From positions 74,677 to 138,676 of the forward strand of contig LFCR01000002.1 of NCBI GenBank assembly GCA_001189215.1: a stretch of 64,000 nt of DNA. The letters run 5' to 3'. The position numbers and the translations under genes are program-made. Source of the stretch: Parcubacteria bacterium C7867-008. Its GTDB lineage: Bacteria > Patescibacteriota > Minisyncoccia > Phycocordibacterales > Phycocordibacteraceae. How positions within the stretch are numbered: position 1 is the stretch's first letter; every line of letters starts with the position of its first letter. The notes beneath the pieces were generated by a model. That model had not been told where the DNA came from and did not search any database. It saw only the letters and a program-made list of their open reading frames with translations. Below, one piece after another: positions 2,301 to 30,058 of this stretch.

Positions 2301-2603
2301 TATGAACGAAAGGACTGCGCGAGGACATGTCCTATGTAAATGCATCCTACCAGATTTTTGATTTTAGCCCACCCAGTTAACGGTGTCTGAATTTTAACCA
2401 TTAAAGTGGCATGTAAAGATATTCACATAACCACTTCTCTTCGCCATTAGTAATGTCTTTATGTGAAGAAGTCTTCATATTCACGACCTTAAATAATACA
2501 GCCTAAATATTAATGATTTCTTGGAAATCTTATAAATCATTCCTGGAGATACTGTCCTTTATCCCCACTGTCCCCCACGTTGTCCACAGTTATACACAAA
2601 TCA

Positions 2604-2630
2604 AAAAGACGGTCTCAGGACCGTCTTTTT
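2604..2630. terminator. bidirectional hairpin terminator (AAAAAGACGGTC-TCAG-GACCGTCTTTTT)
   Basis: Perfect 8-bp GC stem flanked by A-run and T-run; lies just 3' of minus-strand tRNA-Gly. Confidence 0.7.
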
Positions 2631-2639
2631 GATTTTACC

Positions 2640-2713
2640 TGGTGCGGATAGGGAGAATCGAACTCCCGACTCGTCCTTGGCAAGGACGCGTTTTACCACT
2701 AAACCATATCCGC
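2640..2713 (-). tRNA. tRNA-Gly (anticodon GCC), CCA encoded
   Basis: Acceptor GCGGATA/TATCCGC, anticodon stem CGTCC/GGACG with loop TTGCCAA, T-arm GGGAG-TTCGATT-CTCCC, 3' ACCA. Confidence 0.8.
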
Positions 2714-2740
2714 TACAGGGCCGATAATAACACCCCTTCC

Positions 2741-3739
2741 CTACTTTGTCTTCTTGGCGAGGCGTAAAGATGAGTAGTATGCAGCACCAACGAAGATAAG
2801 TCCTGCTGAACCTGTAATGATTTCAGGTACTTCCACAAAGATGCTGGTGAGCATGGCTATAGCAAGTGCCAAAATAGCCCAGTGTGCGCCGTGTTCAAGG
2901 TATACGAGAGCATCAAGTGTCTTACGACGCACCAGATAGACCGTAAGGGATCGTACGAAGTATGCACCGATACCGAGACCAACAACGATGAGAAGAAGCT
3001 CATTGGTGAGGGCAAAAGCACCAACCACACCATCTAGAGAGAAAGCCGCATCGAGTATGTTGAGGTATACGAAGAGGGCTGCACTCCCCGCCCCAATAGA
3101 CTTCTCTGCGCCCTTTGTGAAAGAGTTTGCAACACCCTGAATAACAATGAACAGCACAATGCCAACAACACCAGCAAGAAGAACATTAGCTGAATGATCT
3201 GGCATAAGCAACGCAAGCACAATAAGCACCACAAGACTTATTCCGATCTCTATTGCCTCAATCTTTCCCCACCCTGCCACAATGCGCTCAATAGAACGTA
3301 TCCAGTGGATGTCCTTTCCAACACTAAAGAAGTACTTGAGTGAAACCATGAGCAGGAAGATGCCTCCGAATGCAGAGATTGCATGCCGAGCGCCCTCAAG
3401 TAGATGTCCATATTCATTTGGATTGAAAGCTGCAAGCTGAGCGATCATCCATGGTGACGCACCGACGCTGGCACTCACGATGAGAATTGGTAGCACAAAT
3501 CGTGTACCAAAAACCGCAACAAGTATTCCCCACGTTAGGAAGCGCTTCTGCCACTTCTCATCCATGTTCGCGAGGATCTTTGCATTTACCACCGCATTAT
3601 CGAAAGACAGTGTTACTTCGAGTATTACGAGCAGTGTCGCAATGAAAAATGCCTCCGGACCACCCCACCAAAACACTCCGGCAAGGATTGCAATTGAGAC
3701 AATAACTGGAAGCGCGAATGCGCGAATGGCTGAGTTCAT
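2741..3739 (-). CDS. TerC/DUF475-family integral membrane protein
   Basis: Polytopic membrane protein with EVTLSFDNAVVNA and AFSLDGVVGAF motifs characteristic of TerC-like families. Confidence 0.55.
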   Translation of the reverse strand: MNSAIRAFALPVIVSIAILAGVFWWGGPEAFFIATLLVILEVTLSFDNAVVNAKILANMDEKWQKRFLTWGILVAVFGTRFVLPILIVSASVGASPWMIAQLAAFNPNEYGHLLEGARHAISAFGGIFLLMVSLKYFFSVGKDIHWIRSIERIVAGWGKIEAIEIGISLVVLIVLALLMPDHSANVLLAGVVGIVLFIVIQGVANSFTKGAEKSIGAGSAALFVYLNILDAAFSLDGVVGAFALTNELLLIVVGLGIGAYFVRSLTVYLVRRKTLDALVYLEHGAHWAILALAIAMLTSIFVEVPEIITGSAGLIFVGAAYYSSLRLAKKTK

Positions 3740-3766
3740 TTCCCTACTATACCGTATTCTCTATTG

Positions 3767-3838
3767 TGCTCCCGCCAGGACTCGAACCTGGAACGACTGA
3801 TCCGAAGTCAGTAATGATATCCATTTCACCACGAGAGC
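3767..3838 (-). tRNA. tRNA-Arg (anticodon TCG), no encoded CCA
   Basis: Acceptor GCTCTCG/CGGGAGC, anticodon stem ACTGA/TCAGT with loop CTTCGGA, T-arm CCAGG-TTCGAGT-CCTGG. Confidence 0.75.
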
Positions 3839-3903
3839 GTTCTTGCCTTTGCATACTACGATAGAGCTAGGAGAATGGCGAGTAGCATACTAGTATTTTT
3901 GTA

Positions 3904-5367
3904 ATGAACATGCGCGTTCCAAGTGAGGTGCGAACAGTAGCTGAAGGCCTTAGAGCAGGCGGCTATGAGGCCTATTTGGTCGGTGGCTGTGTACGAGACC
4001 TTTTGCTTGATCGAACCCCTAAAGACTGGGATCTAACTACTGATGCAAAGCCTGAAGATATTCAGCGTCTATTTCCTGAATCCTTCTACGAGAACGACTT
4101 TGGGACGGTGGGAATAAAGACAGAGTCTGAAGACGATCGGTTGGCAGTCATTGAAGTAACCCCCTACCGCACAGAGACTGGATATTCAGATAAACGCCGT
4201 CCTGATGCTGTGGCATTTGGGGATAGTTTGGAAGAAGACCTTGCGCGCCGAGACTTCTCGGTAAACGCTATTGCCTACGATGAATCTAAAGGACAAATCG
4301 TAGATCCGTATCAAGGACAAAAGGACATTGAGCTAAAAGTACTACGTACGGTGGGTATCGCAGCTGATCGGTTTGAAGAAGATGCCCTGCGTCTTATGCG
4401 AGCAGTGCGTTTAGTTGCTGAACTTGAATTTGCCTTAGATGCGGATACTGCTGCAGCAATATTGGAAAAAGGTCCTAATCTTAAGCATGTTTCACGTGAA
4501 AGAATACGGGATGAGTTTGTACGTATTCTTGAGTCTAAACAGCCTATGCAGGCCCTTGTATTGGCTCAGCAGCTTGGAATCCTTGAGTATATCGCCCCTG
4601 AGCTAACCAAAGGTATTGGTATAGAACAGAACCAAGCACACAGCTATGACGTGTTCGGTCATCTTATGCGTGCCTTGCAGCACGCAGCAGATAAAGACTG
4701 GCCTCTTGAATTAAGGCTTTCGGCTGTATTTCATGATGTTTCAAAGCCTGAAACACGTCGTTGGTCCGATGATAAGAAGGACTGGACCTTCCACGGCCAC
4801 GAAGTGGTTGGTGCCCGTACAACAAGAAAAGCGCTTGAAAATATGAGGTTTTCACGTGAAACCATCGAAAAAGTATCGAAATTAGTGCGTTGGCACATGT
4901 TCTTCTCAGACCCTGACCAGATTACTCTTTCAGCTGTTCGTCGAATGATTCGTAATGTTGGCGAGAAAAACATCTGGGATCTTCTAAACCTCCGTATTTG
5001 TGACCGTATTGGCACTGGACGACCTAAGGAACAGCCTTTTAGGTTCCGTAAATATAAAGCAATGGTTGAGGAAGCACTTAGAGACCCAATTTCTGTAGGA
5101 ATGCTTAAAACAGATGGCTCAAGACTTATGAATAAGTTTCACATGAAACCAAGTCCTGAGCTTGGATGGATATTAAACGCCCTTTTGGAGGATGTTTTGG
5201 AGAACCCGGCTCGAAATACTGAGGAGTATCTTGATATTAAGACTAAGGAGCTAATGGCTCTATCCACTGAAAAACTTAAGGAATTGGGGGATTCAGGTAA
5301 GAAAAAGCGAGAGGAGAAAGAATCTGAGGAACTGCAGAAGATACTTGAGAAACACGGAGTAGCATAG
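3904..5367 (+). CDS. cca: CCA-adding tRNA nucleotidyltransferase with HD domain
   Basis: GGCVRDLLLDRTPKDWDLTT polymerase-beta-type NT motif at N-terminus plus HD-domain-like FHDVSKPE; product fits a genome where half the tRNAs lack encoded CCA. Confidence 0.75.
   Translation: MNMRVPSEVRTVAEGLRAGGYEAYLVGGCVRDLLLDRTPKDWDLTTDAKPEDIQRLFPESFYENDFGTVGIKTESEDDRLAVIEVTPYRTETGYSDKRRPDAVAFGDSLEEDLARRDFSVNAIAYDESKGQIVDPYQGQKDIELKVLRTVGIAADRFEEDALRLMRAVRLVAELEFALDADTAAAILEKGPNLKHVSRERIRDEFVRILESKQPMQALVLAQQLGILEYIAPELTKGIGIEQNQAHSYDVFGHLMRALQHAADKDWPLELRLSAVFHDVSKPETRRWSDDKKDWTFHGHEVVGARTTRKALENMRFSRETIEKVSKLVRWHMFFSDPDQITLSAVRRMIRNVGEKNIWDLLNLRICDRIGTGRPKEQPFRFRKYKAMVEEALRDPISVGMLKTDGSRLMNKFHMKPSPELGWILNALLEDVLENPARNTEEYLDIKTKELMALSTEKLKELGDSGKKKREEKESEELQKILEKHGVA
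4490..4501. repeat. palindrome TTTCACGTGAAA (copy a, inside cca ORF)
   Basis: Exact 12-mer palindrome; one of four copies within 1.1 kb. Confidence 0.8.
4850..4861. repeat. palindrome TTTTCACGTGAAAC (copy b, inside cca ORF)
   Basis: 15-mer GTTTTCACGTGAAAC identical to copies c and d. Confidence 0.8.
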
Positions 5368-5368
5368 T

Positions 5369-5380
5369 TTTCACGTGAAA
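5369..5380. repeat. palindrome TTTTCACGTGAAAC (copy c, immediately after cca stop)
   Basis: Starts 1 nt after TAG stop of cca. Confidence 0.8.
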
Positions 5381-5564
5381 CGGGCTTATATAGCCTTAAA
5401 TATAAATATTTAGGGTGTTTCGTGTGGAACCTAAGGTATATAAATAACTAGAGACCCGTAGGGGTCTCTGTTGCGGTCAACCAGGTCTGAAGACAAGGTT
5501 GGGGTTGGGCATTTGGTGAACGTCTTCAAGGAGAAATTTCCCTGGCTAACTTAAAAGAATGCGT

Positions 5565-5576
5565 TTTCACGTGAAA
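5565..5576. repeat. palindrome TTTTCACGTGAAAC (copy d, intergenic)
   Basis: Same 15-mer in 450-nt noncoding gap. Confidence 0.8.
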
Positions 5577-5819
5577 CTTCCGAATCTGACCCATTTATTA
5601 TTCAGGGAATACATCCCGATTATGTTGGTCGATCAGCTTTCAGGTGACAGCGCCTATGATGTTTGAGCACAAAGAGCTCCAAAAGAACTACCGAATCGAG
5701 ATTCGGCAATCCCTTCGCAGGTCTTTGCCGTCTCGTCCTTACGTATCATATATCCATAAAGGACATCGTAAAGGACACAGGAGTGGATAACTTATATAAA
5801 TGTCCTTTATATGTAGTAC

Positions 5820-6584
5820 CTAGAGCGTTATTGAAAGAGGGCAGTGATCTGAACCATATACCGCTGAATGGATTTCAGCTTTCTTTATGTGCTTAACAAA
5901 TTCCTTAGATACAAAGAAATAATCGATACGCCAACCTACATTTCGCTCCCGAGCACGGGTGAGAGTATCCCAGTATGTATACGCATCTGCCTGCTGTGGG
6001 TGGAAGTGTCTGAAAGTATCTACGTATCCCGCCTCAATAACCTCATCAAGCCATTTACGTTCAATCTCTAGGAATCCTGTAGTTTTCTCGTTTTCCTTTG
6101 GGCGAGCCAAATCAATAGGGAAGTGTGCGGTGTTTACATCCCCACAGAACACAACGGGCTTTGATTTTCTAAGTCCTTCACAGAAAGCCAGAAAGTCCTC
6201 GTAATATCGCAGCTTGAAGTCTAGACGCTCTGGGCCACGTCCACCGTTAGGGAAGTAGATATTAAGGAGCCAGAAATCTTCATATTCTGCGCCAATCAGA
6301 CGGCCTTCGTCATCAAACTCTTTAATTCCCATCCCATATATGACAGAGAGTGGTTCAATTCGTGAGTATATTGCTACTCCGCTATAGCCTTTCTTTATCT
6401 TGCAGGGAGAGAAGAATGCTGAGAACCCCCCTAAATTAAGGACATTTTCAGGGAGCTGCTCTGGCTCTGCTTTAACTTCTTGGAAACAGAATATATCTGG
6501 TTTAACTGCCTTAAGAAAGGGTTCCCAGTACCCATTACGCTCAACTGCACGAAGGCCATTAACATTCCACGAGACAATCTTCAT
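5820..6584 (-). CDS. xth: exodeoxyribonuclease III (AP endonuclease, ExoIII/APE1 family)
   Basis: MKIVSWNVNGLRA N-terminus, FCFQE, and C-terminal SDHCP motifs. Confidence 0.85.
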   Translation of the reverse strand: MKIVSWNVNGLRAVERNGYWEPFLKAVKPDIFCFQEVKAEPEQLPENVLNLGGFSAFFSPCKIKKGYSGVAIYSRIEPLSVIYGMGIKEFDDEGRLIGAEYEDFWLLNIYFPNGGRGPERLDFKLRYYEDFLAFCEGLRKSKPVVFCGDVNTAHFPIDLARPKENEKTTGFLEIERKWLDEVIEAGYVDTFRHFHPQQADAYTYWDTLTRARERNVGWRIDYFFVSKEFVKHIKKAEIHSAVYGSDHCPLSITL

Positions 6585-14924: not shown

Positions 14925-14992
14925 CGTATACACACCATATATAGTTGCGCCCTGCTTCACGTGCTGATCATGGTACTATTTATCAAGCAATT

Positions 14993-16006
14993 ATGGCGTT
15001 GTCTGCTCGATCAATCCGCATCATCGCAGCATCAGCACTATCACTAGTGCTTATTGTTGGCGCATACGTTACGTCTGGTCCTATAGATTTTCTTAGGAGT
15101 CGAGTTGCAGACGCGCAGTCTACTGAATCACTCCTTAAGGCATACGCAGCAAAAGATAGTGATGGCGATGCACTTCCAGACTGGCAGGAAGCACTCTACG
15201 GTACTGACCCTAACAATGCGCACTCATTTGATAAGACGCTCACTGATAACGAAGCAGTAAACAAAGGTCTCGTTACCCCAAAGACGTCTGCGGTGGTGCC
15301 AGTTGATCCAGCACTAGATACTCCTGATACTGCTGCTGATGTTCCTGGGAAAGATCCGGCACCAGGCAGTATTACGGACGAGTTTGGAAGACAGTTTTTC
15401 CAAGAATATGTTGCTGCATCTAACGGTGGCCAACTTTCTGAGGAAGATAAGGATGCACTCATTGCAAAACTTCTTGCTCAGTACAGTCAAAAGGCAAGCA
15501 CAGTACTCATTTCAACCTATACCCCCGTATCAGTACGCACATCTTCTGATGTAACAATCACAGAGTATGCGGAGAGTATCGAACAGGTTGTACGTCAGAA
15601 TGATGTACCCCCTGATGCGAGTGATCCGGTAACACTTATGCAAGGATTCTTGGAAGACAGCGATCCTGCTGCATACAAGAAACTTGTTGGCCTTAGTAAG
15701 GCATACTCTGGAATAACAAAAGACCTTCTATCTGTTACCGTGCCTCCGCAACTCGCATCGGAACACCTCGCACTGATTCAGTCTTTTGACACGCTCGCGC
15801 GCTCAACAAAAGCAGTAACAAAATATGAAGATGATCCCCTCGCGGTTCTAGGGTCTCTCTCGCTCCTACAACCAACTGTACATACGCTTATGCTTTCTCT
15901 CCTTACAACTGGTCGTGGAGTTATTGCTGAGAGTGGGGAGCCAAGCGATGGAATGCCAGGTGCACTTATTCTAAAAGTGGTACGTGCCGCAGGAGAACAG
16001 CCATGA
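14993..16006 (+). CDS. hypothetical membrane-anchored exported protein
   Basis: Start moved to ATG 14993 (MALSARSIRIIAASALSLVLIVGAYV signal/anchor); stop overlaps next start (ATGA). Confidence 0.45.
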   Translation: MALSARSIRIIAASALSLVLIVGAYVTSGPIDFLRSRVADAQSTESLLKAYAAKDSDGDALPDWQEALYGTDPNNAHSFDKTLTDNEAVNKGLVTPKTSAVVPVDPALDTPDTAADVPGKDPAPGSITDEFGRQFFQEYVAASNGGQLSEEDKDALIAKLLAQYSQKASTVLISTYTPVSVRTSSDVTITEYAESIEQVVRQNDVPPDASDPVTLMQGFLEDSDPAAYKKLVGLSKAYSGITKDLLSVTVPPQLASEHLALIQSFDTLARSTKAVTKYEDDPLAVLGSLSLLQPTVHTLMLSLLTTGRGVIAESGEPSDGMPGALILKVVRAAGEQP

Positions 16007-17424
16007 GTACAAACCGCCTCCCACGTATAGCGACTGCTGGAATGTGTTTTGCACTTGTCTTAAGTCTTACCTTTGCACCATTCTCATTTAGTACACCGAG
16101 AGCGAGTGCCCAACTTCCTGTTACCGATGCTGCGGTTCTTATTGCACTTACTCCACTTAATGTAAGTGCGGCAACAAGCGCAGAAGGTAACTTCTTTGAT
16201 GCACATATCCGTCCTATTCTTGATGGTCTCGCATGGACTGTAGCAAAAGTAGCAGTTCAATCTCTCACTCGTAGCGTGGTGAACTGGATTAACTCAGGTT
16301 TCCAAGGCTCCCCTGCATTCGTTGGAGACCTTAAGCAGAATCTTCAGGAACTCGGGGATACGGTTGCTGACGACTTTTTTGACTCACTTCAAGATAATAC
16401 GGGTGTAGATGTACGCTCTCCATTCAAAGACCAGGTGACCCAAGCACTTCGTGACAACTACTACCGCACAACGGGTGGATTCTACGGAAGCAACTACGAT
16501 CTAGATCGCTATAGCGATGATCCTGCTGCTTTCGTTAATGGTCACTTTGCGAAGGGTGGTTTTGACGCAATGTTTGCCGCAATGGCACAGGATGAGAACA
16601 CACCACTTGGTGCATACCGCGCAGGACAGGATTCACTTGCGAGAAAGGTTGAAGACTTCCGTGTAAACCGTCTCCACGAACTTACATGGGGCAAAGGATT
16701 CATGTCTTGGCGCGGTAACTGTCTCGTAAAGCAGCCTGCAGGCACTCCTACCTCTCTGCAAAAGAAAGATAGCTGTCTTTCTTATGAGATTAAAACTCCT
16801 GGATCGGTTATTGAAAGCACTCTTGGTATCACCGCATCATCCCCACTTCGTCAGCTTGAACTCGCCGACTCATTCAATGAGATTATCGGTGCACTTGCGG
16901 GTCAGCTTGTTGGACAAATACTTGGTGGTACGGGTCTTTCCGGAGCCTCACAGCCTCGCCCAGGGGGTGGTAGCTCATACTTAGATGAAGCAACTGACCC
17001 TGATCAGTACTCTCAAAACTCAACTAGCCTCGCAAATGGTTTCATTAAGAACGTTAGAGACGAGCAAACACGGACAAAGACCTATCAGAGGGATTGGCAA
17101 ACAGTGCAGTCTGCTGCAGAAGATGCAGGAAGCTGTGTTGACGACAGTGTAGTTCTTGATGCGGTTGAACGATCTAAAGCAGGACTTGAAAAAGCATCTG
17201 CTGCACTATCTGCACTCGACAAGATCAGTGCAAAGATATCGGCCGCTCAGAACTCAACTAACTCCTCAGCAGCACTCACCTCAGTCTCTGCTGAATTCCA
17301 AGAACTTACTTCATCAGGTACGTTTATTACTGCTGGTGAGCAGGTTGAGGCACAGACACAGGCAAGTGATTCAGAGGGTACTCTATACAAGAAACTCACA
17401 GCAACTTGCGGAAGTAAGCGATAA
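16003..17424 (+). CDS. hypothetical secreted protein, first gene of T4SS-like cluster
   Basis: Signal peptide MSTNRLPRIATAGMCFALVLSLTFAPFSFSTPRASA; Ala/Ser-rich C-terminal coiled region; translationally coupled to upstream gene. Confidence 0.45.
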   Translation: MSTNRLPRIATAGMCFALVLSLTFAPFSFSTPRASAQLPVTDAAVLIALTPLNVSAATSAEGNFFDAHIRPILDGLAWTVAKVAVQSLTRSVVNWINSGFQGSPAFVGDLKQNLQELGDTVADDFFDSLQDNTGVDVRSPFKDQVTQALRDNYYRTTGGFYGSNYDLDRYSDDPAAFVNGHFAKGGFDAMFAAMAQDENTPLGAYRAGQDSLARKVEDFRVNRLHELTWGKGFMSWRGNCLVKQPAGTPTSLQKKDSCLSYEIKTPGSVIESTLGITASSPLRQLELADSFNEIIGALAGQLVGQILGGTGLSGASQPRPGGGSSYLDEATDPDQYSQNSTSLANGFIKNVRDEQTRTKTYQRDWQTVQSAAEDAGSCVDDSVVLDAVERSKAGLEKASAALSALDKISAKISAAQNSTNSSAALTSVSAEFQELTSSGTFITAGEQVEAQTQASDSEGTLYKKLTATCGSKR

Positions 17425-17428
17425 CCCT

Positions 17429-19684
17429 ATGCGAATTACATCCCTGATGCTTCGCTCGGTACTCGTTGCAGTTTTATTTGTAGTACTAGTACTCCCCGGG
17501 GTACCTGTACACGCCCAACAACCTGCACCAACAAAGCCTGTTACTCCAGCCGCAGCAACACCTGCTCCTACGGCTGCTCCTACTGCCGCTGGGCAACCTG
17601 CTAAAACATCAGAAAGTCTTGGCGATAAGATAAAGGATGGAGCTGCAGCTGTAGGAGACATTGGTAGTTGTGCCAAAGATTTTGGAAACTGTCTTCTTAA
17701 TGCAGTGGGGAACGCCGTGGGTGGTTTTGCAAACTTTATACTGGCTCTCTCTGGAGTCCTTCTCAACTTTGTAATAGTTAAAACGGTATTCCAGTTCTCA
17801 ACACTTGTTGGTAACTCGCAGGGTCTATTAACCTCATGGGGAATACTGCGTGATCTTGGAAACCTGGTGCTGTTGTTCGGGTTTGTTCTGATGGGGCTCG
17901 GTACTATTTTGGATACGAATAAACTCCCAGACAAAAAAGCAATTCCAATGCTCATAGTCTTTGCAGTTCTTCTGAACTTTAGTCTCTTTGCTGCTGAAGC
18001 GGTTATTGATACATCTAACGTGCTTACATCAGCAATATACGCACAAGCAAACACTAATCCATGTTATTCGGAGGCGTGTGATATTAACGTGGGCCTTGGA
18101 GGAACCATAATGGAGGCAACCGGGCTTTCAACTCTAAACAATGTCCCAACTGACAGCTATTCCAAAAAGGCCAACAAACTTAGTATCATTTTTGGGTTGG
18201 CTGCATTCGCCATAATTGGTAGCGTTGTACTCTTTGCTGCTGCAATAATGCTGGCATTCAGAGCAGTTACACTAACAGGTTTGATAATTATCTCTCCCAT
18301 TGGTTTTGCTGGAATGGCTATTCCTCCACTTAAAAAGTATGCAACACAGTGGTGGAATGCACTTATACATCAAGCATTCTTTGCTCCTCTACTGTTCCTG
18401 TTCATCCTTATAACGCTAAAAGTAACCGAAGGGTTTGCTGCAGGGACTACGAATAAGGGCCTCGCCTCAGCGCTGCTAGCGCAGGGCACATCGGAAATGG
18501 GCATCATTATGGTGTTCATGCTGATCATTGGCGGTCTCGTTGCGTCACTTATGGCTGCAAAGAAGTTTGGCGCCATGGGAGCAGACTATGCGATCAATAC
18601 AGCAGGGAAGGTGGTAGGTGGAGCAACATTCGGTACCGCTGGATTTGTTGGAAGAAGAACTATCGGTGCTGGTTCATTGGCAGCCGCCCGCACCATACGC
18701 TCACAGAGCTGGGGCGCAACAGGGGCTGGTCGCATACTGGCAGGAGTTGCTGACCGGGGCGGGAAGGCAAGTTATGACTTCCGTAAAACGAAGATTGCAG
18801 CTCAAGCTTCTAAGAAAACTAAGATTGACTTTGGCACTCCAGGTAAAACTGCATCTGGTGGCTTTGCCGCAATAGAAAAGAAAGATATCGATAAGAAGAC
18901 TGCATACGCAAAGTCTCTTGAAATGAGTGAGAGCCAGAAGATAGAGAAAGAGAAACTTGGTGCTGCAAAAGAGACTGCTGCAGGTGAGCAGGCCGTTTCT
19001 GTTGTCGACACCAACACACGAAGAGCAGCCGCTGAAGCAACTAAGAAACAAATCAAAGACACTTGGGCTCCTCGCGAGCAACAGCTTAATACCGAGATTG
19101 CTGCTCTTGAAAGCAAGGCAGTAGCAAATGCTGGTGGGGCAGAGGTATCTCGTCTTGATACAGAAATCGCTATTGAAAAACTTAAAGCGCAACGCTTCCA
19201 AGCAACAGGACAGACTACAGAGTGGATGGATGCTGAAAACAAAGTCAAAGCGCTTCAGAAGCAGCGTGCAGAGTTTGTTGATGTTGAAACCAAACTCAAT
19301 GCACTTAGGGATGCAAAGACTACTGAGCTTTCTCAATACGAGGCTCAAATCGCTGTGGTTGATGGGGATCTCGCAAGCATCAGTGCAGAGAGTGCAGCAA
19401 GCGAGACGGCATACAAAGCGAAACTTGATGGAATCGATAAGAGACTCAAGGAGATTGATCCGAAGACTAAACAAGAAAAGTATGCCGAAGGACTTAAGAA
19501 TGATTGGTACGGTGGGTATAGCAGTCGTGAAGCAGCTCGAAAAATTAAGACTGACAACAAGAAGAAGTCTCCAGAGAAAGCACTTCTCGAAGCAATTAAG
19601 GCTCTTGAAGCAAACACTCCTCCTCCAGCAGCACCGCCAGCTCCTGGTTCTCCACCACCCCCTCCTACACCCCCAACTCCGTAA
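17429..19684 (+). CDS. TrbL/VirB6-like polytopic membrane protein with ~350-aa C-terminal coiled-coil/Lys-Ala-Glu-rich extension
   Basis: Start at ATG 17429 (5 nt after upstream stop) instead of track 17156; signal peptide, Pro/Ala-rich linker, then ~6 TM helices in VirB6-like spacing, then long charged coiled-coil and PPAAPPAPGSPPPPPTPPTP tail. Confidence 0.45.
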   Translation: MRITSLMLRSVLVAVLFVVLVLPGVPVHAQQPAPTKPVTPAAATPAPTAAPTAAGQPAKTSESLGDKIKDGAAAVGDIGSCAKDFGNCLLNAVGNAVGGFANFILALSGVLLNFVIVKTVFQFSTLVGNSQGLLTSWGILRDLGNLVLLFGFVLMGLGTILDTNKLPDKKAIPMLIVFAVLLNFSLFAAEAVIDTSNVLTSAIYAQANTNPCYSEACDINVGLGGTIMEATGLSTLNNVPTDSYSKKANKLSIIFGLAAFAIIGSVVLFAAAIMLAFRAVTLTGLIIISPIGFAGMAIPPLKKYATQWWNALIHQAFFAPLLFLFILITLKVTEGFAAGTTNKGLASALLAQGTSEMGIIMVFMLIIGGLVASLMAAKKFGAMGADYAINTAGKVVGGATFGTAGFVGRRTIGAGSLAAARTIRSQSWGATGAGRILAGVADRGGKASYDFRKTKIAAQASKKTKIDFGTPGKTASGGFAAIEKKDIDKKTAYAKSLEMSESQKIEKEKLGAAKETAAGEQAVSVVDTNTRRAAAEATKKQIKDTWAPREQQLNTEIAALESKAVANAGGAEVSRLDTEIAIEKLKAQRFQATGQTTEWMDAENKVKALQKQRAEFVDVETKLNALRDAKTTELSQYEAQIAVVDGDLASISAESAASETAYKAKLDGIDKRLKEIDPKTKQEKYAEGLKNDWYGGYSSREAARKIKTDNKKKSPEKALLEAIKALEANTPPPAAPPAPGSPPPPPTPPTP

Positions 19685-19740
19685 CTAAAGTCACCGTGGA
19701 GTAGTGGTAATTATTCCACTCACGCGCGATACTAAGAGTA

Positions 19741-20937
19741 ATGGGAGAAGAAGAGATCAACATTGATGAGCTCAATCCACAACAGAAGGCTGCCATTCTC
19801 ATGGCAGACCTTCCTGTTCCTGTTCAGAACTTTCTTAGAAGTCCTGAGCGCGACGCCGTATCAATTGAATTAAGTACAAAATATAAACTGCACGCTGATC
19901 AGGCAGGAGTATTCTCTGATGCATATATCTATATGCTCATGGGAATCTACACTCCTGAAGAGTTTGTACAACAACTTCGTCAGGCACAAATACCAGAAGC
20001 TACCGTTCAGGGAATAACCCTTGATCTAAATGAACGTGTGTTTAAGCGCCTTCAGAATGCTGAGCGTACGTACACGCCACCAGCCACGCCCGCACCAGCG
20101 CCAAAACCAGTACCGCCGCCGGTAGTAGTTGCTCCGGTTACTCCAAAGCCGATACAACCAACAGTAATGTCTGCACCAATTGTTCCAAAGCCTGTGCAAC
20201 CTCCTGTAGTTGCTGCTCCAGTCCTTCCAAAACCAGCTGTTACCGCCCCAGCACCACTGGTCGCAAGCATTCCAACCTTTAATCCTGCACTTGGCCCTGT
20301 TCCAACAGAACCAACCCCTACTCCGACACCATTTGCGCCAGTACCTAAAAGCATGCCTGTTATTCCGGTTCAAGGACCAATGCCAGCTGCTGCTCCAGTT
20401 CCACCCCCAGTACCACAAATTCCTGCCTATATTCCACCGTCGCCAGGAGCGACACCTATATATAGTCCGCCAACAGAGGCAGTGCAGCCTGGAGTACGAA
20501 CTATGGCTCACGATATTGAGATGATTAAAGAGGCTGTTGAGCATCCTCATCCTGTACGTCCAGACGTTCCTCCTCAGATATCTTGGCAGCCAAACTCCCC
20601 AGCACGTTCATTCCAGACATCATCTGTACCAAATACTCTTGCTGCACCAAGTATTCATCCGGCTCCAACCGGCGTGCCTATTGCTCCAATACCATCTATG
20701 CCACCGGCTCCAACCATGCCCGCACCTTCAGCACCATTATCTGTTGCGGTCCCACCACAGCACACAGCATCAACGCCTCCGTTACCTCCATCTTCAGCAC
20801 CCGTACCGCACAATCTCCCAACAGAACCAGCAGCGTATCCATGGCAGCAGCAAACACCAGCATCCGTATCAACGGGTCCAGCGAATCCAATCATAAAAGA
20901 GTACAGTGTGGATCCGTATCGTGAGGTCCCTCAGTAG
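19741..20937 (+). CDS. proline-rich low-complexity protein (PxxP/PVxP repeats), hypothetical
   Basis: Globular N-terminal ~115 aa then ~280 aa of P/A/V repeats (PVQPPVVAAPVLPKPAVTAPAPL...); causes many spurious antisense ORFs. Confidence 0.5.
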   Translation: MGEEEINIDELNPQQKAAILMADLPVPVQNFLRSPERDAVSIELSTKYKLHADQAGVFSDAYIYMLMGIYTPEEFVQQLRQAQIPEATVQGITLDLNERVFKRLQNAERTYTPPATPAPAPKPVPPPVVVAPVTPKPIQPTVMSAPIVPKPVQPPVVAAPVLPKPAVTAPAPLVASIPTFNPALGPVPTEPTPTPTPFAPVPKSMPVIPVQGPMPAAAPVPPPVPQIPAYIPPSPGATPIYSPPTEAVQPGVRTMAHDIEMIKEAVEHPHPVRPDVPPQISWQPNSPARSFQTSSVPNTLAAPSIHPAPTGVPIAPIPSMPPAPTMPAPSAPLSVAVPPQHTASTPPLPPSSAPVPHNLPTEPAAYPWQQQTPASVSTGPANPIIKEYSVDPYREVPQ

Positions 20938-20958
20938 GGAACTGATATACTCAAGGTA

Positions 20959-21384
20959 ATGGAGTATCAGGTTCCTCAGTTTATTGAAGTCGAAGATAAG
21001 ATATTTGGTCCTTTCACTCTTCGACAATTCATCTTCGTTGCAGGCGGAGTAGGGTTAAGTGCTGCAATTCTTGTATATGTTCCCCTTATCTTTGCTCTCA
21101 TACTTGTACTTCCTATTGCAGGGATCACCGGGGCACTCGCATTCTACAAAGTAAATAACAAGTCCTTCTTGGATATCATGGAGGCAGGATTCAACTACTA
21201 CACTAAGGAGCGTCTTTATCTTTGGAAGAAAGTTGAGAAGAAGTCTGAAACTCCTGCAATTGTGCAAGTTGCTGCGCCCACACAAGTGGATAGACAAAAG
21301 TTAGGTGTTTCAAGTGATCGTTTGAAAGAACTTGCGTGGTCTCTAGATATCAAGGATCACAATAAGACACCTGATACCTACTAA
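20959..21384 (+). CDS. VirB3-like small two-TM membrane protein
   Basis: 141 aa, hairpin of two TM helices (FIFVAGGVGLSAAILVYVPLIFALILVLPIAGITGALAF) directly upstream of VirB4 gene, as in Gram-positive-type T4SS. Confidence 0.4.
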   Translation: MEYQVPQFIEVEDKIFGPFTLRQFIFVAGGVGLSAAILVYVPLIFALILVLPIAGITGALAFYKVNNKSFLDIMEAGFNYYTKERLYLWKKVEKKSETPAIVQVAAPTQVDRQKLGVSSDRLKELAWSLDIKDHNKTPDTY

Positions 21385-21399
21385 CGTTATAGTTACTGT

Positions 21400-22032
21400 A
21401 TGCCTGCATCTAAACCAGCTCAAGATTTTGTACCTGTATCAGAAGTACGCAGTGGTGTAGTCATCCTGAAAGAGGGGGGCTATCGTGGCATCTTGATGTG
21501 TTCTTCTCTTAACTTCGCACTTAAGTCAGAGGACGAGCAGCGCGCAATAATTGGTGGGTTCCAGAACTTCCTTAACACGCTCGATTTCACCGTGCAGATT
21601 GTGGTGCATTCCCGTAAAACTGACATTCGTCCGTATCTTAATCTCCTAGGTGAACGTCTTCAGCACCAATCGAGTGAACTCATGCGCACTCAACTACGTG
21701 AATACATAAACTTTATTCGAACCTTTATTGAAGGTTCAGAAATCATGACAAAGACCTTCTATGTGGTGGTTCCGTATTCTGTAAGCAGTGCAGCCGTTTC
21801 TGTTAAGGGAGCATTTGCAGGAATAGGGAAGACGCCAAGTGCAGAACCCGTTGCTGATCAGGGCTTCGAGGAGGGTCGAGTGCAGCTTGAACAACGTATG
21901 GCACTCGTGGCTGGCGGTCTTGGCAGTTCAGGTCTACGCGCAATTCCACTTGGTACAGAAGAGATCATCGAACTTCTATACCGTTCATTCAATCTAGGCG
22001 AGATGGATAATCCAATCTCATTCACCGCATAA
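21400..22032 (+). CDS. VirB4/TraE-family ATPase, N-terminal domain (separated from ATPase domain by in-frame TAA)
   Basis: GVVILKEGGYRGILMCSSLNFALKSEDEQRAIIGGFQNFLNTLDFTVQIVVHSRKTDIRPYLNLL resembles the CagE/TrbE/VirB4 N-domain; same reading frame as 22036..23850. Confidence 0.55.
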   Translation: MPASKPAQDFVPVSEVRSGVVILKEGGYRGILMCSSLNFALKSEDEQRAIIGGFQNFLNTLDFTVQIVVHSRKTDIRPYLNLLGERLQHQSSELMRTQLREYINFIRTFIEGSEIMTKTFYVVVPYSVSSAAVSVKGAFAGIGKTPSAEPVADQGFEEGRVQLEQRMALVAGGLGSSGLRAIPLGTEEIIELLYRSFNLGEMDNPISFTA

Positions 22033-22035
22033 TCT

Positions 22036-23850
22036 ATGGCACTACTTGATTTCTTCAACAACAACAAGAAAGATGAGGCACCGGCAATGGCGCCAGTGTT
22101 GCCTAAGGATATTTATGCACAGGGCACACTCGATCTTGCAGACACGATCGCACCCGCAGCACTTAAGGTTGGCTCACGCGAGCTTGAGCTTGGAGAAAAG
22201 GTGGCACGATCGTTCTATACCATTTCATATCCACGCTTCCTTACGGACAGCTGGTTCACCCCCATAATCAATCTCGATAAGGTGTTTGATGTTTCTATAT
22301 TCGTTAGCCCTATTGATACCGCAGATGCGCTCCATAACTTCCAGAGGAAGGTAGCTGAAGTGCAGAGCCAGATTTCAGAAAGGGAAGCAAAGGGTCTTGT
22401 GCGTGATCCAATGCTTGATACGGCATACCAAGACCTTGAAAACCTCCGAGACAACCTACAACAAGCCCAGGAACATCTGTTTGAGGTTGGTTTGTACATA
22501 ACCATGTACGCTTCAAGTAAGGAGGAGCTTGATAAGGTTGAAGGAGATCTTCGCGGCATTCTTGATTCAAAACTCGTATACACCAAGCCTGCGCTCTTCC
22601 AGCAGGAGCAAGGGTTCCGTACCACGCTACCACTTGCCTTAGACCAGTTGAACGTAACAAACAAGCTCAACTCTGCACCGCTTTCTTCTATCTTCCCATT
22701 CGTCTCTTTTGATCTCTCAAGCGATCGAGGAATCCTGTACGGTATAAACCGCCACAACTCATCACTTATTCTTTTCGATCGTTTCTCACTTGAGAACTAC
22801 AACTCGGTTGTGTTCGCAAAGTCTGGCTCTGGAAAGTCCTATGCCGTGAAGCTTGAGATTCTCCGTTCACTCATGTTTGAAACAGACGTTATCGTTATTG
22901 ATCCTGAGCGTGAATACGACAACCTCGCACAGGCTACCGGTGGTAGGGTATTCAATATTTCTCTTTCAAGCGAGAACCATATCAACCCATTTGATCTTCC
23001 GCCGGTTAAGGAGGATGAAAACCCTTCAGATATTCTTCGCAGCACAATCATCAATTTGGTTGGGCTCTTCCGCATCATGCTTGGTGGTCTCAGTCCTGAA
23101 GAAGATGCAATTATCGATCGTGCTATCTCTGAAACCTATGCGCTCAAAGATATTAGTGGGGATGCAGATTTCACCGGTGTAGAGCCACCACTACTTTCAG
23201 ACTTTGAGAACGTACTTTCTGGTATGGAGGGTTCAACATCACTCGTACAGCGCCTCTCTAAGTACACCCGCGGCACGTGGTCTGGATTCCTCAATCAACC
23301 AACGAACGTTGATATCAAGAATCAGTTTGTGGTGTTTTCGGTGCGAGACATGGAAGATGAGCTTAAACCAGTGGCGATGTATATCGTTACGCACTTCATC
23401 TGGAATGCCGTACGCCACGAACTTAAGAAACGCCTTCTTATCATTGATGAGGCATGGTGGATGATGAAGTCTGAAGATACCGCATCATTCCTCTTCAGTA
23501 TTGCGAAACGCGGACGTAAATACTTCCTTGGTCTCTCAACTATCACCCAGGACGTTGAGGACTTCCTTCGCAGTCCATACGGTAAGCCAATTCTTACCAA
23601 CTCCTCTATGCAGCTTCTGCTCAAACAATCTCCAACAACGGTAGATGTACTACAGCAAACATTTAATCTGACAGATGAGGAGAAATTCCTTCTGCTTGAG
23701 TCTGGAGTGGGTGAGGGTCTCTTCTTTGCCGGCCTTAAGCACGCAGCAATTAAAGTTGTTGCTTCCTATACAGAAGACCAGATCATAACCTCAGACCCGT
23801 CCCAGCTACTTCAGATACAGCGTGAAAAATCACGGCAGGAGTCTGCCTAA
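22036..23850 (+). CDS. VirB4/TraE-family T4SS ATPase, ATPase domain
   Basis: Walker A FAKSGSGKSY, Walker B LLIIDEAWWMM, GLSTITQD; length plus preceding ORF about 814 aa, typical of full VirB4. Confidence 0.7.
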   Translation: MALLDFFNNNKKDEAPAMAPVLPKDIYAQGTLDLADTIAPAALKVGSRELELGEKVARSFYTISYPRFLTDSWFTPIINLDKVFDVSIFVSPIDTADALHNFQRKVAEVQSQISEREAKGLVRDPMLDTAYQDLENLRDNLQQAQEHLFEVGLYITMYASSKEELDKVEGDLRGILDSKLVYTKPALFQQEQGFRTTLPLALDQLNVTNKLNSAPLSSIFPFVSFDLSSDRGILYGINRHNSSLILFDRFSLENYNSVVFAKSGSGKSYAVKLEILRSLMFETDVIVIDPEREYDNLAQATGGRVFNISLSSENHINPFDLPPVKEDENPSDILRSTIINLVGLFRIMLGGLSPEEDAIIDRAISETYALKDISGDADFTGVEPPLLSDFENVLSGMEGSTSLVQRLSKYTRGTWSGFLNQPTNVDIKNQFVVFSVRDMEDELKPVAMYIVTHFIWNAVRHELKKRLLIIDEAWWMMKSEDTASFLFSIAKRGRKYFLGLSTITQDVEDFLRSPYGKPILTNSSMQLLLKQSPTTVDVLQQTFNLTDEEKFLLLESGVGEGLFFAGLKHAAIKVVASYTEDQIITSDPSQLLQIQREKSRQESA

Positions 23851-23856
23851 TCCGAT

Positions 23857-24240
23857 ATGGCAGCACAGCCTATCGACAACACGGAACAGCATTTGATGAT
23901 TGGCGCTTCATTCCTTGCAGATACCATTGGTCTTATCCCTGTAATTGGTAACTTTGTTTGGTTTGCCGCGTACGTTTCATTAACACTCTATTTTCTAATA
24001 AAGCTCGGGCCAAGCTATCTCGGGGGGAAGAATTCGGATCAAAAGATGGCCAAAGCCCTTATAACAGGGATTATTGGCGCCATACCAGTAATAGGGAACA
24101 TTGCTCCAGATCTCCTCATTCTGACCGTTACTACATTTCGTATGCACAATAAGGAGGTGGCGGAAGAGGAGCACAAAATGCAGGCAGCAACACAAGCAGC
24201 TAATGATAATGTTCGACGGAACCTATCCCGAGCTGCTTAG
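23857..24240 (+). CDS. small membrane protein with duplicated IPVIGN motif, hypothetical
   Basis: GLIPVIGNFVWFAAYVSLTLYFL and IIGAIPVIGNIAPDLLILTV hydrophobic repeats. Confidence 0.45.
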   Translation: MAAQPIDNTEQHLMIGASFLADTIGLIPVIGNFVWFAAYVSLTLYFLIKLGPSYLGGKNSDQKMAKALITGIIGAIPVIGNIAPDLLILTVTTFRMHNKEVAEEEHKMQAATQAANDNVRRNLSRAA

Positions 24241-24277
24241 CTTCGTACTGGTATAGACGCGTTATACTGTACCTATC

Positions 24278-25264
24278 ATGAAAGCAGGTTTCGTAGTACT
24301 GGCAGCACTTCTTATTGGTCTAAGCGGCACACCTGTACACGCACAGACTGCTGAAATTGGTCAGGACCCTTTGATGGTTTCTATAAGTCCTGATTTCCCA
24401 CGTCCATACGAAGCAGTTACGATAAGTCCTCAAAGTAACCTTATAGATCTAAGTGCCAGCACGGTCAGTGTATCTGTGAACGGAGTACTGATTGAAAAGG
24501 GGAGCGGTACCGCACCCGTACAAATACAAGCTGGTGCCGCTGGTGTCAGGACTGTTGTTACGGTAACTGCCGTGAATAATGGCCAGACATATACGAAAGA
24601 AATAACCATTCGCCCTGCAGATGTGGCACTTATTGTCGAGCCTGTATCGGTAAACCATCCATTCTATCGAGGAGCATCTCTTGTTTCTTCTGAAGGACTG
24701 CTTCGTTTAGTTGCACTTCCAGATCTCCGCACCACATCTGGGGCACCAATTCCCGCATCGAGCCTTGTATATACCTGGCGCAACGGTAGTCAGGTCCTTC
24801 AGGATAATTCGGGTATCGGCAAGTCTGTCCTTACCGCAACTGCGCCGGTACGCTATCGAGATACCACTATTCGTGTAACTGTTGCTACACAAGACAGTAG
24901 TATCGTTGCTGAGGCAACGGCATTCATCTCTCCAACCGTTCCTGTTATTCGTATCTACCAAAACGACCCCCTACTTGGTCCACTCTTTAATTACGCACTG
25001 CCTGCAAAAATAACTATGACTAGTGAGGAACAGACATTCCGTGCTGTTCCATATTACTTCTCCGGCATCCCACTCATGAACTGGACGGTTAACGGTAACC
25101 AGAGTCAATCAGGTAAGGATATTACGGTGCGTTCAAGTGGTTCAGGGACCGGAACAGCACTTGTTGGTTTCAATGCAAAACAGACTGCGTCAGGGGTGAT
25201 TGCTAACAGCTCTCTCAACATTAACTTCGGTGAGAAGAAGTCCCTTGGTATATTTGGCCTATAG
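24278..25264 (+). CDS. secreted beta-rich hypothetical protein
   Basis: Signal peptide MKAGFVVLAALLIGLSGTPVHA; Thr/Val/Ser-rich. Confidence 0.45.
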   Translation: MKAGFVVLAALLIGLSGTPVHAQTAEIGQDPLMVSISPDFPRPYEAVTISPQSNLIDLSASTVSVSVNGVLIEKGSGTAPVQIQAGAAGVRTVVTVTAVNNGQTYTKEITIRPADVALIVEPVSVNHPFYRGASLVSSEGLLRLVALPDLRTTSGAPIPASSLVYTWRNGSQVLQDNSGIGKSVLTATAPVRYRDTTIRVTVATQDSSIVAEATAFISPTVPVIRIYQNDPLLGPLFNYALPAKITMTSEEQTFRAVPYYFSGIPLMNWTVNGNQSQSGKDITVRSSGSGTGTALVGFNAKQTASGVIANSSLNINFGEKKSLGIFGL

Positions 25265-25266
25265 CT

Positions 25267-25893: not shown

Positions 25894-25902
25894 TACCAAA
25901 TT

Positions 25903-28218: not shown

Positions 28219-28370
28219 TAGCGTACTTTCTTAGAGACAGTAAGGCTGGCACGGCCCTTACGGCGACGTGCGAGGAGCACACGACGTCCGGTAGGGGTAG
28301 CTGAACGAGCACGGAAACCGTGGGTTCGTGCGCGCTTACGCTTCTTTGGCTGGTAGGTGCGCTTAGGCAT
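28218..28370 (-). CDS. rpmH: 50S ribosomal protein L34
   Basis: Reverse-complement translates [50 protein letters not shown]; the ORF-track entry 28190..28384 is a different frame and is spurious. Confidence 0.85.
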
Positions 28371-28376
28371 AGGAAG

Positions 28377-28385
28377 TTATACACA
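28377..28385 (+). promoter_or_regulatory. DnaA box (TTATACACA, 1 mismatch)
   Basis: In rpmH/dnaA divergent intergenic region. Confidence 0.5.
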
Positions 28386-28436
28386 GGATACTAACAGGTT
28401 GCGCTCTGGCGTGCAAGAAAAGCCCTATCTTTGTGG

Positions 28437-28445
28437 TTATCCACA
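28437..28445 (+). promoter_or_regulatory. DnaA box (TTATCCACA, perfect consensus)
   Basis: 23 nt upstream of dnaA ATG; overlaps inverted TGTGGTTAT. Confidence 0.65.
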
Positions 28446-28467
28446 GGCCTGTATACAATGAGCGTAC

Positions 28468-29817
28468 ATGAATCGCTCTGATCCACATGAACTTTGGGAA
28501 TACATTCTGATGCAGGTCGAGTTATCTATATCTGCAGCTAATTTCAACACCTGGTTCAAGTCGAGCAGCATCGTAAAGATAGAGGATGGCATTGTATACA
28601 TTGGTGTTCAGAGCCCCTTCTTCAAAGACTGGTATCAAAAGCATTTTCACACCCTTCTTCTTAAGATAGTGCGTGATGTATCTATTGAGTTCCGTAATAT
28701 TGAGTATCAAATCGTAAAAGATATTGCTCGTAAACCAAAGGAACAGCGTAGTCGTCGTGAGCCAACACCTGAACTTCCTCTCAATGAGTTCTATATCAAC
28801 AAGAGCGATAATCTAAACCCTCGATATACGTTTGATACCTTCGTGGTGGGTTCATTTAATGAGTTAGCTCATACCGCTGCGATGGCAGCCATTGCGCGCC
28901 CTGGTATAACATACAACCCGCTCTTTATTTATGGTGATACCGGACGTGGAAAGACTCACCTTATTCAGTCTATTGGTAACCAGTACAAGAAACAGTATCC
29001 AAATCGTAAGGTGTTCTACCTAACATCTGAGAAGTTCGGTACTGACTATACCGATTCACTCCAGCAGGGAACCGCAAACCGTTTTAAGGAGAAGTATCGT
29101 CAGTATGATCTTCTGATCATGGACGATGTGCAGTTCCTTTCTCGTAAGGAGAAGATGCAGGAAGAACTCTTCCATCTCTTCAACACGCTCTACGACAACA
29201 ACAAGCAGATTGTATTCTCCTCAGATCGTGCACCTATCGCTATTCCAGACATTGCAGACCGTCTTCGTGGACGCTTCGTATCTGGCATGACCGTTGATAT
29301 TGGTGAACCAGACAACGAGTCTCGTATCGCTATCGTACGAAAGAAGGCTGCAATGAACGGTATTACGCTTTCTGATGAAGTGGCTGAATATATCGCTACT
29401 TCAGTAACAGGGTCTATTCGAGAACTGGAGGGCGTACTCAATTCAGTGGTCTGCCATACACAAGTGAAAGGTATTCCACCAGACATTGCAGAGGTTCGTC
29501 AGTCTCTTCGTTCCTTCTCTCGCCCTTCTAAAACAGTATCGGTTAAGCATGTGGTCTCTAAGATTGCTGAGTTCTACGGTATTGAGGAGGAAAGTATCTA
29601 TGAGAAGACTCGTAGAAGGGAAGTAGTACGTCCACGCCAGGTGATTATGTACATTCTTCGTGAAGACTTTAGTGTTTCATACCCAACTATTGGCTCTAAA
29701 CTCGGTGGTAGAGACCACACCACCGTCATTCACTCCTGCGAAAAGGTTAAGAGAGAAGTCGCAGAAGATACTGAGCTCGCAAAAGAGATTCAGGATATTC
29801 GTACCTTGTTAGTCTAG
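28468..29817 (+). CDS. dnaA: chromosomal replication initiator protein DnaA
   Basis: Walker A GDTGRGKTHL, Walker B LLIMDDVQF, sensor and C-terminal DNA-binding helix KLGGRDHTTVIHSCEKV. Confidence 0.9.
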   Translation: MNRSDPHELWEYILMQVELSISAANFNTWFKSSSIVKIEDGIVYIGVQSPFFKDWYQKHFHTLLLKIVRDVSIEFRNIEYQIVKDIARKPKEQRSRREPTPELPLNEFYINKSDNLNPRYTFDTFVVGSFNELAHTAAMAAIARPGITYNPLFIYGDTGRGKTHLIQSIGNQYKKQYPNRKVFYLTSEKFGTDYTDSLQQGTANRFKEKYRQYDLLIMDDVQFLSRKEKMQEELFHLFNTLYDNNKQIVFSSDRAPIAIPDIADRLRGRFVSGMTVDIGEPDNESRIAIVRKKAAMNGITLSDEVAEYIATSVTGSIRELEGVLNSVVCHTQVKGIPPDIAEVRQSLRSFSRPSKTVSVKHVVSKIAEFYGIEEESIYEKTRRREVVRPRQVIMYILREDFSVSYPTIGSKLGGRDHTTVIHSCEKVKREVAEDTELAKEIQDIRTLLV

Positions 29818-30058
29818 TTGTGAATAAAGTCTGGGGATTTCCTGTGGAGATCCTGGAGATAGAGTAGGGAAGAACTATGTGGAGAAGTATCTGACAGACG
29901 TATAATTTTCCCCACCTACCAACCACACTCCGCACTATCCCCAGTAGTTCTCCGCGCCTTTCACACAGCTTGAATGAAACCTGCGTAAGCGTTTGGGACC
30001 GTATATACTAGAGATATCGCTCTTTCCCCAGTGTCCACACCCCTAATAATAAAGAATC

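Follow-up and report, generated by a model that had tools for sequence, protein, structure and literature searches.

Probable chromosomal parS sites clustered within and just behind the cca gene of a Parcubacteria bacterium

In chromosomal ParABS systems, ParB acts as a CTP-dependent clamp. Many of the parS sites of Bacillus subtilis lie inside coding sequences, and the clustered arrays of Caulobacter crescentus, Corynebacterium glutamicum, Pseudomonas aeruginosa, and Myxococcus xanthus form one partition complex. A paralogue of ParB binds the Noc-binding sites (NBS) of Firmicutes, which are 14- to 16-bp palindromes with TTTC...GAAA arms and a CCCGGG centre, dispersed over the chromosome and avoiding the terminus. 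As a rule, parS sites are found in the ori domain, with several in most species, and parAB lies close to oriC in most bacteria studied. The chromosomal consensus is TGTTNCACGTGAAACA in B. subtilis and TGTTTCACGTGAAACA in Hyphomonas, the latter being also the parS sequence of Caulobacter and of Burkholderia chromosome I (PMC7022226, Table 1). Our full-text literature search found the exact 16-mer TGTTTCACGTGAAACA used as parS in the papers checked, and for Patescibacteria, CPR, Parcubacteria, and Saccharibacteria, we met no account of either parS or ParB in the searchable literature.

We analysed a 64-kb stretch (the window) of the genome of the uncultured Parcubacteria bacterium C7867-008 (Parcubacteria/Paceibacterota, within the little-studied Patescibacteria) in which a parS-like palindrome is repeated. 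Three of its positions lie within cca, whose product has no identical protein on record, and the other copies lie in the gap between convergent genes. The gene and the sites, numbered as candidate parS, are as follows.

3904..5367, plus strand: cca, tRNA CCA-adding nucleotidyltransferase with HD domain (Pfam PolyA_pol, PolyA_pol_RNAbd, HD, tRNA_NucTran2_2)
4488..4503, unstranded: candidate parS-1, TGTTTCACGTGAAAGA, 15/16 against TGTTTCACGTGAAACA; within cca, codons 196-200 (VSRER)
4848..4863, unstranded: candidate parS-2, GTTTTCACGTGAAACC, 13/16, with the 12-bp core exact; within cca, codons 316-320 (FSRET)
5135..5150, unstranded: candidate parS-3, decayed, AGTTTCACATGAAACC, core CG changed to CA; within cca, codons 411-416
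5367..5382, unstranded: candidate parS-4, GTTTTCACGTGAAACG, 13/16; begins on the final base of the cca stop codon
5417..5430, unstranded: candidate parS-5, decayed, GTTTCGTGTGGAAC, two changes within the central hexamer
5563..5578, unstranded: candidate parS-6, GTTTTCACGTGAAACT, 13/16; within a small-RNA candidate

The 12-mer TTTCACGTGAAA was found in four exact copies (4490-4501, 4850-4861, 5369-5380, and 5565-5576) and nowhere else in the 64 kb. A first-pass annotation had reported four perfect 12-mers without another full copy in the window and had judged them far beyond chance. The exact count agreed, and so did the comparison with chance: four copies were observed against a mean of 0.02 expected, and none of 100 dinucleotide-preserving shuffles reached four. 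Its finer points also held, namely that three copies share a 15-mer (GTTTTCACGTGAAAC), that the third copy starts 1 nt past the cca stop (TAG, 5365-5367), that the in-frame copies encode VSRER and FSRET (HVSRER in copy 1 and RFSRET in copy 2), and that a degenerate copy, which reads GTTTCGTGTGGAAC, lies at 5417-5430. Two points needed amendment. The motif in its title, TTTTCACGTGAAAC, is correct for three copies but not for copy 1, which reads TGTTTCACGTGAAAGA; and its list, right about the four exact copies and the one at 5417-5430, had missed a one-mismatch copy, TTTCACATGAAA, within cca at 5137-5148. The cluster, therefore, comprises four intact copies spanning 1.1 kb and two decayed ones (5137 and 5417). 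When up to two mismatches were allowed, 10 matches were found in the window against 3.1 expected; the excess is the cluster itself, and the five other such matches outside it are at chance level. The bare hexamer CACGTG occurs 20 times against 14-17 expected and is scattered across the whole window. Because the hexamer keeps its expected frequency window-wide, the clustered entity is the long palindrome and not the short word. A site of the TTTCACGTGAAA type was likewise not found in the adjoining 10 kb on the left, which were taken from a metagenome contig.

Extended to 16 bp, the four intact copies match TGTTTCACGTGAAACA at 15, 13, 13, and 13 of 16 positions and all preserve the 12-bp core exactly; against the universal consensus of chromosomal parS, TGTTNCACGTGAAACA, they match at 13-15 of 16. 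Departures are found at outer positions 1-2, where three of the four intact copies have GT in place of TG, and the perfect 16-mer consensus does not occur among the 81 loci that we compared (the window and 80 relatives). The core varies in the relatives as TTYCACGTGRAA, and the two variable positions (Y and R) coincide with the N of the published consensus and with the position symmetric to it. We read the palindromes as probable chromosomal parS, that is, as centromere-like loading sites of a ParABS segregation system, and we put the probability of this reading at roughly 0.85. A partition site had been the last-listed alternative in the first-pass annotation, and it is the one favoured by a canonical parS palindrome near origin-like elements.

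Relatives were collected by scanning species-representative genomes with the cca protein, which gave 80 loci at 69-93% amino-acid identity. These are labelled Parcubacteria, Paceibacterota, Kaiserbacteria, or Patescibacteria, and many MAGs carry the label 'Saccharibacteria'; the closest relative is Parcubacteria bacterium C7867-007 (L001). The palindrome recurs across these loci at equal cca offsets of 586, 946, and 1233, and one to four further copies follow within 300 nt past the cca stop. At offset 586 (parS-1), the exact core is present in 57/81 loci, and offset 946 (parS-2) is filled in 50/81. The position of the decayed parS-3, offset 1233, has the exact core in 18/81 loci, and the majority reading in relatives is AAG TTY CAC GTG AAA CC, or GTTYCACGTGAAAC. 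Behind the gene, most relatives carry a copy immediately past the stop codon, as with parS-4; the closest relative has a one-mismatch copy at the position that corresponds to parS-5 in the alignment (offset 1514); and parS-6, which reads GTTYCACGTGRAA in the intergenic alignments, is among their best-conserved stretches.

Over the 81 loci, the core TTYCACGTGRAA was found 233 times in the 1.6-kb cluster region versus once in 1.32 Mb of flanks, an enrichment of ∼2,400-fold for the window and its 80 relatives. At least one site is present in 77 of the 78 species with a complete region (median of three). Local clustering is, thus, extreme, and the positions are conserved across ∼80 species. The first-pass annotation had staked its reading on a motif that is locally clustered and shared by orthologous loci, and this is what we found: the motif is not uniformly frequent, and it recurs at the orthologous locus in nearly all of these species.

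The copies inside cca allowed constraint on the protein to be told from constraint on the DNA. When 70 cca genes were aligned by codon without gaps, a single codon dominated at most of the residues concerned: TCA for Ser197 (59/70), CGT for Arg198 (55/57), and GAA for Glu199 (62/70) in parS-1, and TTT for Phe316 (64/70), TCA for Ser317 (59/61), and GAA for Glu319 (66/70) in parS-2, where CGT for R318 is also constrained. Neighbouring Leu and Arg codons have a codon entropy of 1.7-2.5 bits. When residues of cca were ranked from the lowest synonymous entropy upward, the motif Ser codons came 1st and 3rd of 12 conserved Ser, the motif Arg codons came 1st and 2nd of 34, and the motif Glu codons came 1st and 2nd of 25. 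The motif codons are synonymously constrained, and selection, therefore, acts on the nucleotide sequence itself. Conservation of the in-ORF copies at synonymous positions, which the first-pass annotation had proposed as a check, was borne out by these lowest or near-lowest entropies.

The cluster also lies close to two elements of origin type.

2420..2600, plus strand: origin-like element, an AT-rich stretch and then a same-strand array of DnaA-box-like 9-mers
28377..30045, plus strand: classical origin neighbourhood, with dnaA at 28468-29817 and dnaN at 30059-31159 (Pfam)

In the origin-like element, the AT-rich stretch (2421-2540, 120 bp) has the lowest GC content of the window (29%). The DnaA-box-like 9-mers that follow are spaced ∼10 bp apart (TTATCCCCA at 2559, TGTCCCCCA at 2570, TTGTCCACA at 2580, and TTATACACA at 2590), and this array, 2559-2598, is the densest DnaA-box cluster in the window. 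The element is conserved upstream of cca in 43 relatives, with 1.95 boxes per locus versus a background of 0.037, and the relatives likewise show an AT-rich dip directly upstream of the DnaA boxes. At the second element, rnpA and rpmH on the minus strand precede dnaA-dnaN in the classical arrangement, and both spacers hold DnaA boxes (28377, 28437, 28479, 29819, and 29878). The parS cluster is ∼2 kb from the DnaA-box/AT-rich element and 23 kb from rpmH-dnaA-dnaN, so it is both ori-proximal and multicopy; because of these distances, its location fits the ori-domain rule for parS. GC skew, in the window and as the mean of 46 relatives, is too weak and noisy to choose oriC between the 2.5-kb element and dnaA-dnaN. 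On the other side of the cluster, an exonuclease-family gene (5820-6584, minus strand) converges with cca and is followed by a gene for a XerC/D-type recombinase (Pfam). The order cca, exonuclease, xer, rpsO, NYN is kept in relatives, and in none of these loci does dnaA lie less than 10 kb from cca.

Binding and spreading of ParB at these sites and a role in segregation are what we infer from the motif and its setting. A ParB dimer would recognise each 16-bp palindrome through its helix-turn-helix domain, would then close into a CTP-dependent clamp, and would slide onto the adjoining DNA. With four intact sites in 1.1 kb, loading events would recur and build up one large partition complex, which would mark the origin region, be moved by ParA, and probably load SMC; several neighbouring sites would make ParB loading robust. 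In this family of Patescibacteria, the loading sites would be embedded in the 3′ half of cca and the spacer behind it, adjoining the DnaA-box/AT-rich element.

We searched for the proteins that would read such sites. Pfam scans of the 67 ORFs of the window revealed neither parB nor parA. Spo0J and Soj queries, which score as ParB and ParA when checked, found neither by tblastn in the window or in the ∼21-kb loci of the 80 relatives (±10 kb around cca) at cut-offs of E<=1e-3 and E<=50, together with a scan for the GERRxRA motif. Neither turned up in the 10 kb of metagenome contig that adjoins the window on the left; on the right, the contigs stop where the window itself ends. The search covers 74 kb, by our estimate well under 15% of a Patescibacteria-sized genome (the largest contigs of relatives reach ∼0.69 Mb).

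These negative results bear on the alternative that the sites are bound outside ParABS by a ParB-derived or unrelated protein, such as a Noc-like nucleoid-occlusion factor or an orphan ParB that loads SMC after the loss of ParA. The absence of parA and parB from the 74 kb around the origin-type elements and from the vicinity of cca in 80 relatives is in its favour, as are the reduced genomes of Patescibacteria and the existence of ParB proteins with no active segregation role, for example in Thermus. We nevertheless consider it unlikely. The core carries the CACGTG of ParB sites and not a Noc-type centre, the dispersed distribution of Noc sites contrasts with the tight grouping of the present sites near the origin, and an orphan ParB would leave the sites parS all the same. 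Should genomes as reduced as these truly lack ParB, conservation of the sites would suggest that some other factor reads parS, which would be the more interesting outcome.

The spacer behind cca contains a further candidate element.

5445..5738, minus strand: candidate structured small RNA of ∼290 nt, between cca and the exonuclease gene; contains parS-6
5745..5812, minus strand: promoter region of the small-RNA candidate, with direct repeats of TGTCCTTTA at 5757 and 5769 and an inverted copy at 5801

The minus strand of this 450-bp spacer has a predicted sigma-70-like promoter (5772 to 5745) and a predicted terminator hairpin (5469 to 5450); in relatives, the -10 box is kept as TAnnnT, and T-tailed terminators and several conserved blocks are present as well. 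For the 294-nt transcript, the minimum free energy (MFE) of folding is -98.6 kcal/mol (z = -4.14). RNAalifold predicted no structure from a gappy 27-sequence intergenic alignment, and we, therefore, tested one well-aligned hairpin by counting pairs. This hairpin, GGGR-YGUAU-YCCC, shows compensatory changes at three of four pairs, a result matched by none of 500 shuffles and by no slid control. Rfam gave no match in the window at gathering score or at E<=10, apart from chance-level miRNA matches, and none for the small-RNA candidate in six relatives. SRP RNA, tmRNA, RNase P RNA, and 6S RNA were each compared with the candidate by eye and did not fit, in agreement with Rfam and ARAGORN.

The lead idea of the first-pass annotation was an operator array for a dimeric DNA-binding protein; here, a transcription factor that binds the palindromes would regulate cca, the small-RNA candidate, or the two together. 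Perfect inverted repeats are typical of dimeric regulators, and copies lie in or near this conserved minus-strand transcription unit (5445-5772). We nevertheless regard such an array as distinctly improbable. The placement, within a coding sequence or in the gap between convergent genes, is not that of operators: three positions fall deep inside cca, at 0.6-1.2 kb from the start of its ORF, a distance of 170-370 nt separates the remaining ones from the spacer's only predicted promoter, and no copy overlaps the predicted -35/-10 boxes. Moreover, the small-RNA promoter bears another conserved motif, TGTCCTTTA, and the palindrome has the sequence of parS and not of any regulator box known to us. 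Boxes for LexA (GAAC-N4-GTTC), Rex, CRP/FNR, cre/CcpA, and Noc were compared individually and do not match it.

The palindromes might instead work as RNA, either as self-complementary hairpins or as pairing partners, in the 3′ region of the cca mRNA and in the small RNA; in the MFE fold of the latter, parS-6 does pair with a degenerate copy at 5638-5649. To this we assign a very small chance. Two RNA roles with nothing in common would be demanded, one for the copies on the sense strand of cca and one for the copy in the minus-strand RNA; a perfect palindrome of 12 nt yields only a 4-bp hairpin; and covariation, the mark of constraint on RNA, is absent at the palindrome, where the sequence itself is conserved. 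Conservation of parS-6 could be partly owed to the RNA candidate in which it lies. Least probable is a word in general use across the genome, whether as a dispersed repeat, for DNA uptake, or as a target of methylation or restriction-modification. In its favour, type II restriction enzymes are known to cut at CACGTG, but the methylation idea of the first-pass annotation is refuted because the motif is strictly local, with the 12-mer confined to the 1.1-kb cluster and the relatives' flanks all but empty of it, and because the hexamer occurs at the expected frequency. Mobile or dispersed repeats were considered separately; the copies are not copies of such a repeat because the sequences flanking them are unrelated to each other.

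A second motif, TGTCCTTTA, is clustered together with the probable parS sites. Five exact copies occur in the window, all within 2553-5809, versus ∼0.5 expected by our own calculation. Relatives show it fused to the first DnaA box of the element upstream of cca, at two fixed cca positions that are synonymously constrained (GGA for Gly130 in 67/69), and as direct repeats across the -35 region of the small-RNA promoter. A DnaA-box-like TTATCCACT lies at 5782-5790 in that promoter region; GTAAAGGA is found 300-620 nt past cca in ∼70 of 78 loci, with GTGGATA 15 nt later in about half.

We tentatively suggest, as a possibility that we hold to be rather doubtful, that the 3.4-kb segment at 2.4-5.8 kb is a combined origin-centromere module specific to this family of Patescibacteria. 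Such a module may have four parts: an oriC-type unit detached from dnaA, with two to four phased DnaA boxes and an AT-rich stretch; four to six parS sites fixed within cca; TGTCCTTTA as putative factor-binding sites at the DnaA box, in cca, and at the -35 region of the small-RNA promoter; and a previously undescribed structured small RNA, which may carry parS in its gene and a DnaA box in its promoter. If so, expression of the small RNA could report the occupancy of the origin region by ParB and DnaA. Further work may be rewarded at the origin-like element, the TGTCCTTTA motif, and the RNA candidate in particular.

Read as parS, the repeat gains a testable identity: it would mark the centromere of one Candidate Phyla Radiation chromosome. 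It offers an example of a DNA signal kept within a housekeeping gene through selection at synonymous sites. Because it is conserved in all but one of the related species with a complete region, the cluster could serve as a practical landmark for origin regions in fragmentary Patescibacteria MAGs.

Compared with known systems, the locus most resembles parS as bound by Spo0J/ParB in B. subtilis. Both have the same 16-bp palindrome with tolerated degeneracy at position 5/12, both have several copies that lie mostly in the ori domain, and both show one to three mismatches at outer positions. The B. subtilis sites, however, are spread over hundreds of kilobases, one of them in spo0J itself, whereas here, four to six sites fall within 1.1 kb, in a single, unrelated housekeeping gene and the spacer that follows it. 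Three of the four intact sites here have GT, not TG, as outer dinucleotide, and parAB was not found nearby. Arrays in C. crescentus, C. glutamicum, P. aeruginosa, and M. xanthus are like this one in having several parS within a few kilobases to tens of kilobases near oriC; they differ in flanking or lying near the parAB operon, whereas the present cluster is anchored to the cca-exo-xer synteny, with parAB either absent or no nearer than 10-60 kb. Set against the NBS consensus, the sites fall outside that class, since the centre is CACGTG in all intact copies and the distribution is strictly local. The half-parS sites of P. aeruginosa ParB (GTTCCAC / GTTTCAC) have the same heptamer arms as every copy here, but they number in the hundreds and are dispersed, whereas the present sites are full palindromes in a cluster. 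The element itself is well known; what is new is its host phylum and its unusually compact arrangement within a gene.

The spacer between cca and the exonuclease gene contains a candidate for a new structured small RNA on the minus strand, whose predicted promoter and terminators are both conserved in relatives. It is listed here with other sites of this region:

5445-5772, minus strand: candidate structured small RNA, ∼290 nt, in the spacer between cca and the exonuclease gene
5638-5649: degenerate parS-like TTTCAGGTGACA
5782-5790, minus strand: DnaA-box-like TTATCCACT
2553-2561, 4287-4295, 5757-5765, 5769-5777, 5801-5809: exact copies of TGTCCTTTA
2420-2600: phased array of four DnaA-box-like 9-mers, between tRNA-Pro and tRNA-Gly

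One hairpin of the candidate RNA shows compensatory changes, and a C-rich loop carries CACCA..GCCCCnGCUCCA; a search of Rfam returned no match for it. One copy of parS, the palindrome read as a ParB-binding site, lies inside the candidate (5565-5576) and, in the predicted fold, base-pairs with the degenerate TTTCAGGTGACA. The DnaA-box-like TTATCCACT is located ∼35 bp upstream of the predicted −10 box of the small-RNA promoter, and roughly half of the relatives have its counterpart, GTGGATA, at a constant spacing.

A second motif, TGTCCTTTA, is also clustered: all five exact copies fall within 3.3 kb, compared with ∼0.5 expected for the whole window. The motif is kept at the same places in relatives, including inside cca, where it is under synonymous constraint.

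Farther upstream of cca, the phased DnaA-box-like array adjoins the 120-bp stretch with the highest AT content in the window and is conserved in 43 relatives. This element may be an oriC detached from dnaA or a second DnaA-box cluster. The organism's two JGI metagenome contigs (J055_10002654 and J055_10000356, sample 3300001199; L083 and L084) both stop at this tRNA/DnaA-box region, at ∼2.1-2.7 kb of the window, and the assembly therefore breaks at that point. Two further contigs that bear a Patescibacteria-type cca with parS have been assigned to a “Bacillota” MAG (L034) and a “Methylobacter” MAG (L060), assignments that are probably binning errors.

Toward and at dnaA, two more features were recorded:

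14945-27123: type IV secretion/conjugation-like gene cluster (TrbL/VirB6, PrgI, TraG/VirB4-like ATPase, T4SS pilin)
28218-28370, minus strand: short unlisted ORF, read by eye only as ribosomal protein L34 (rpmH)

The secretion-like cluster sits between the parS cluster and dnaA, and its 19-25 kb part has a strongly negative GC skew that differs from its surroundings. The L34-like ORF, on this by-eye reading, completes the classical rnpA-rpmH/dnaA-dnaN arrangement.
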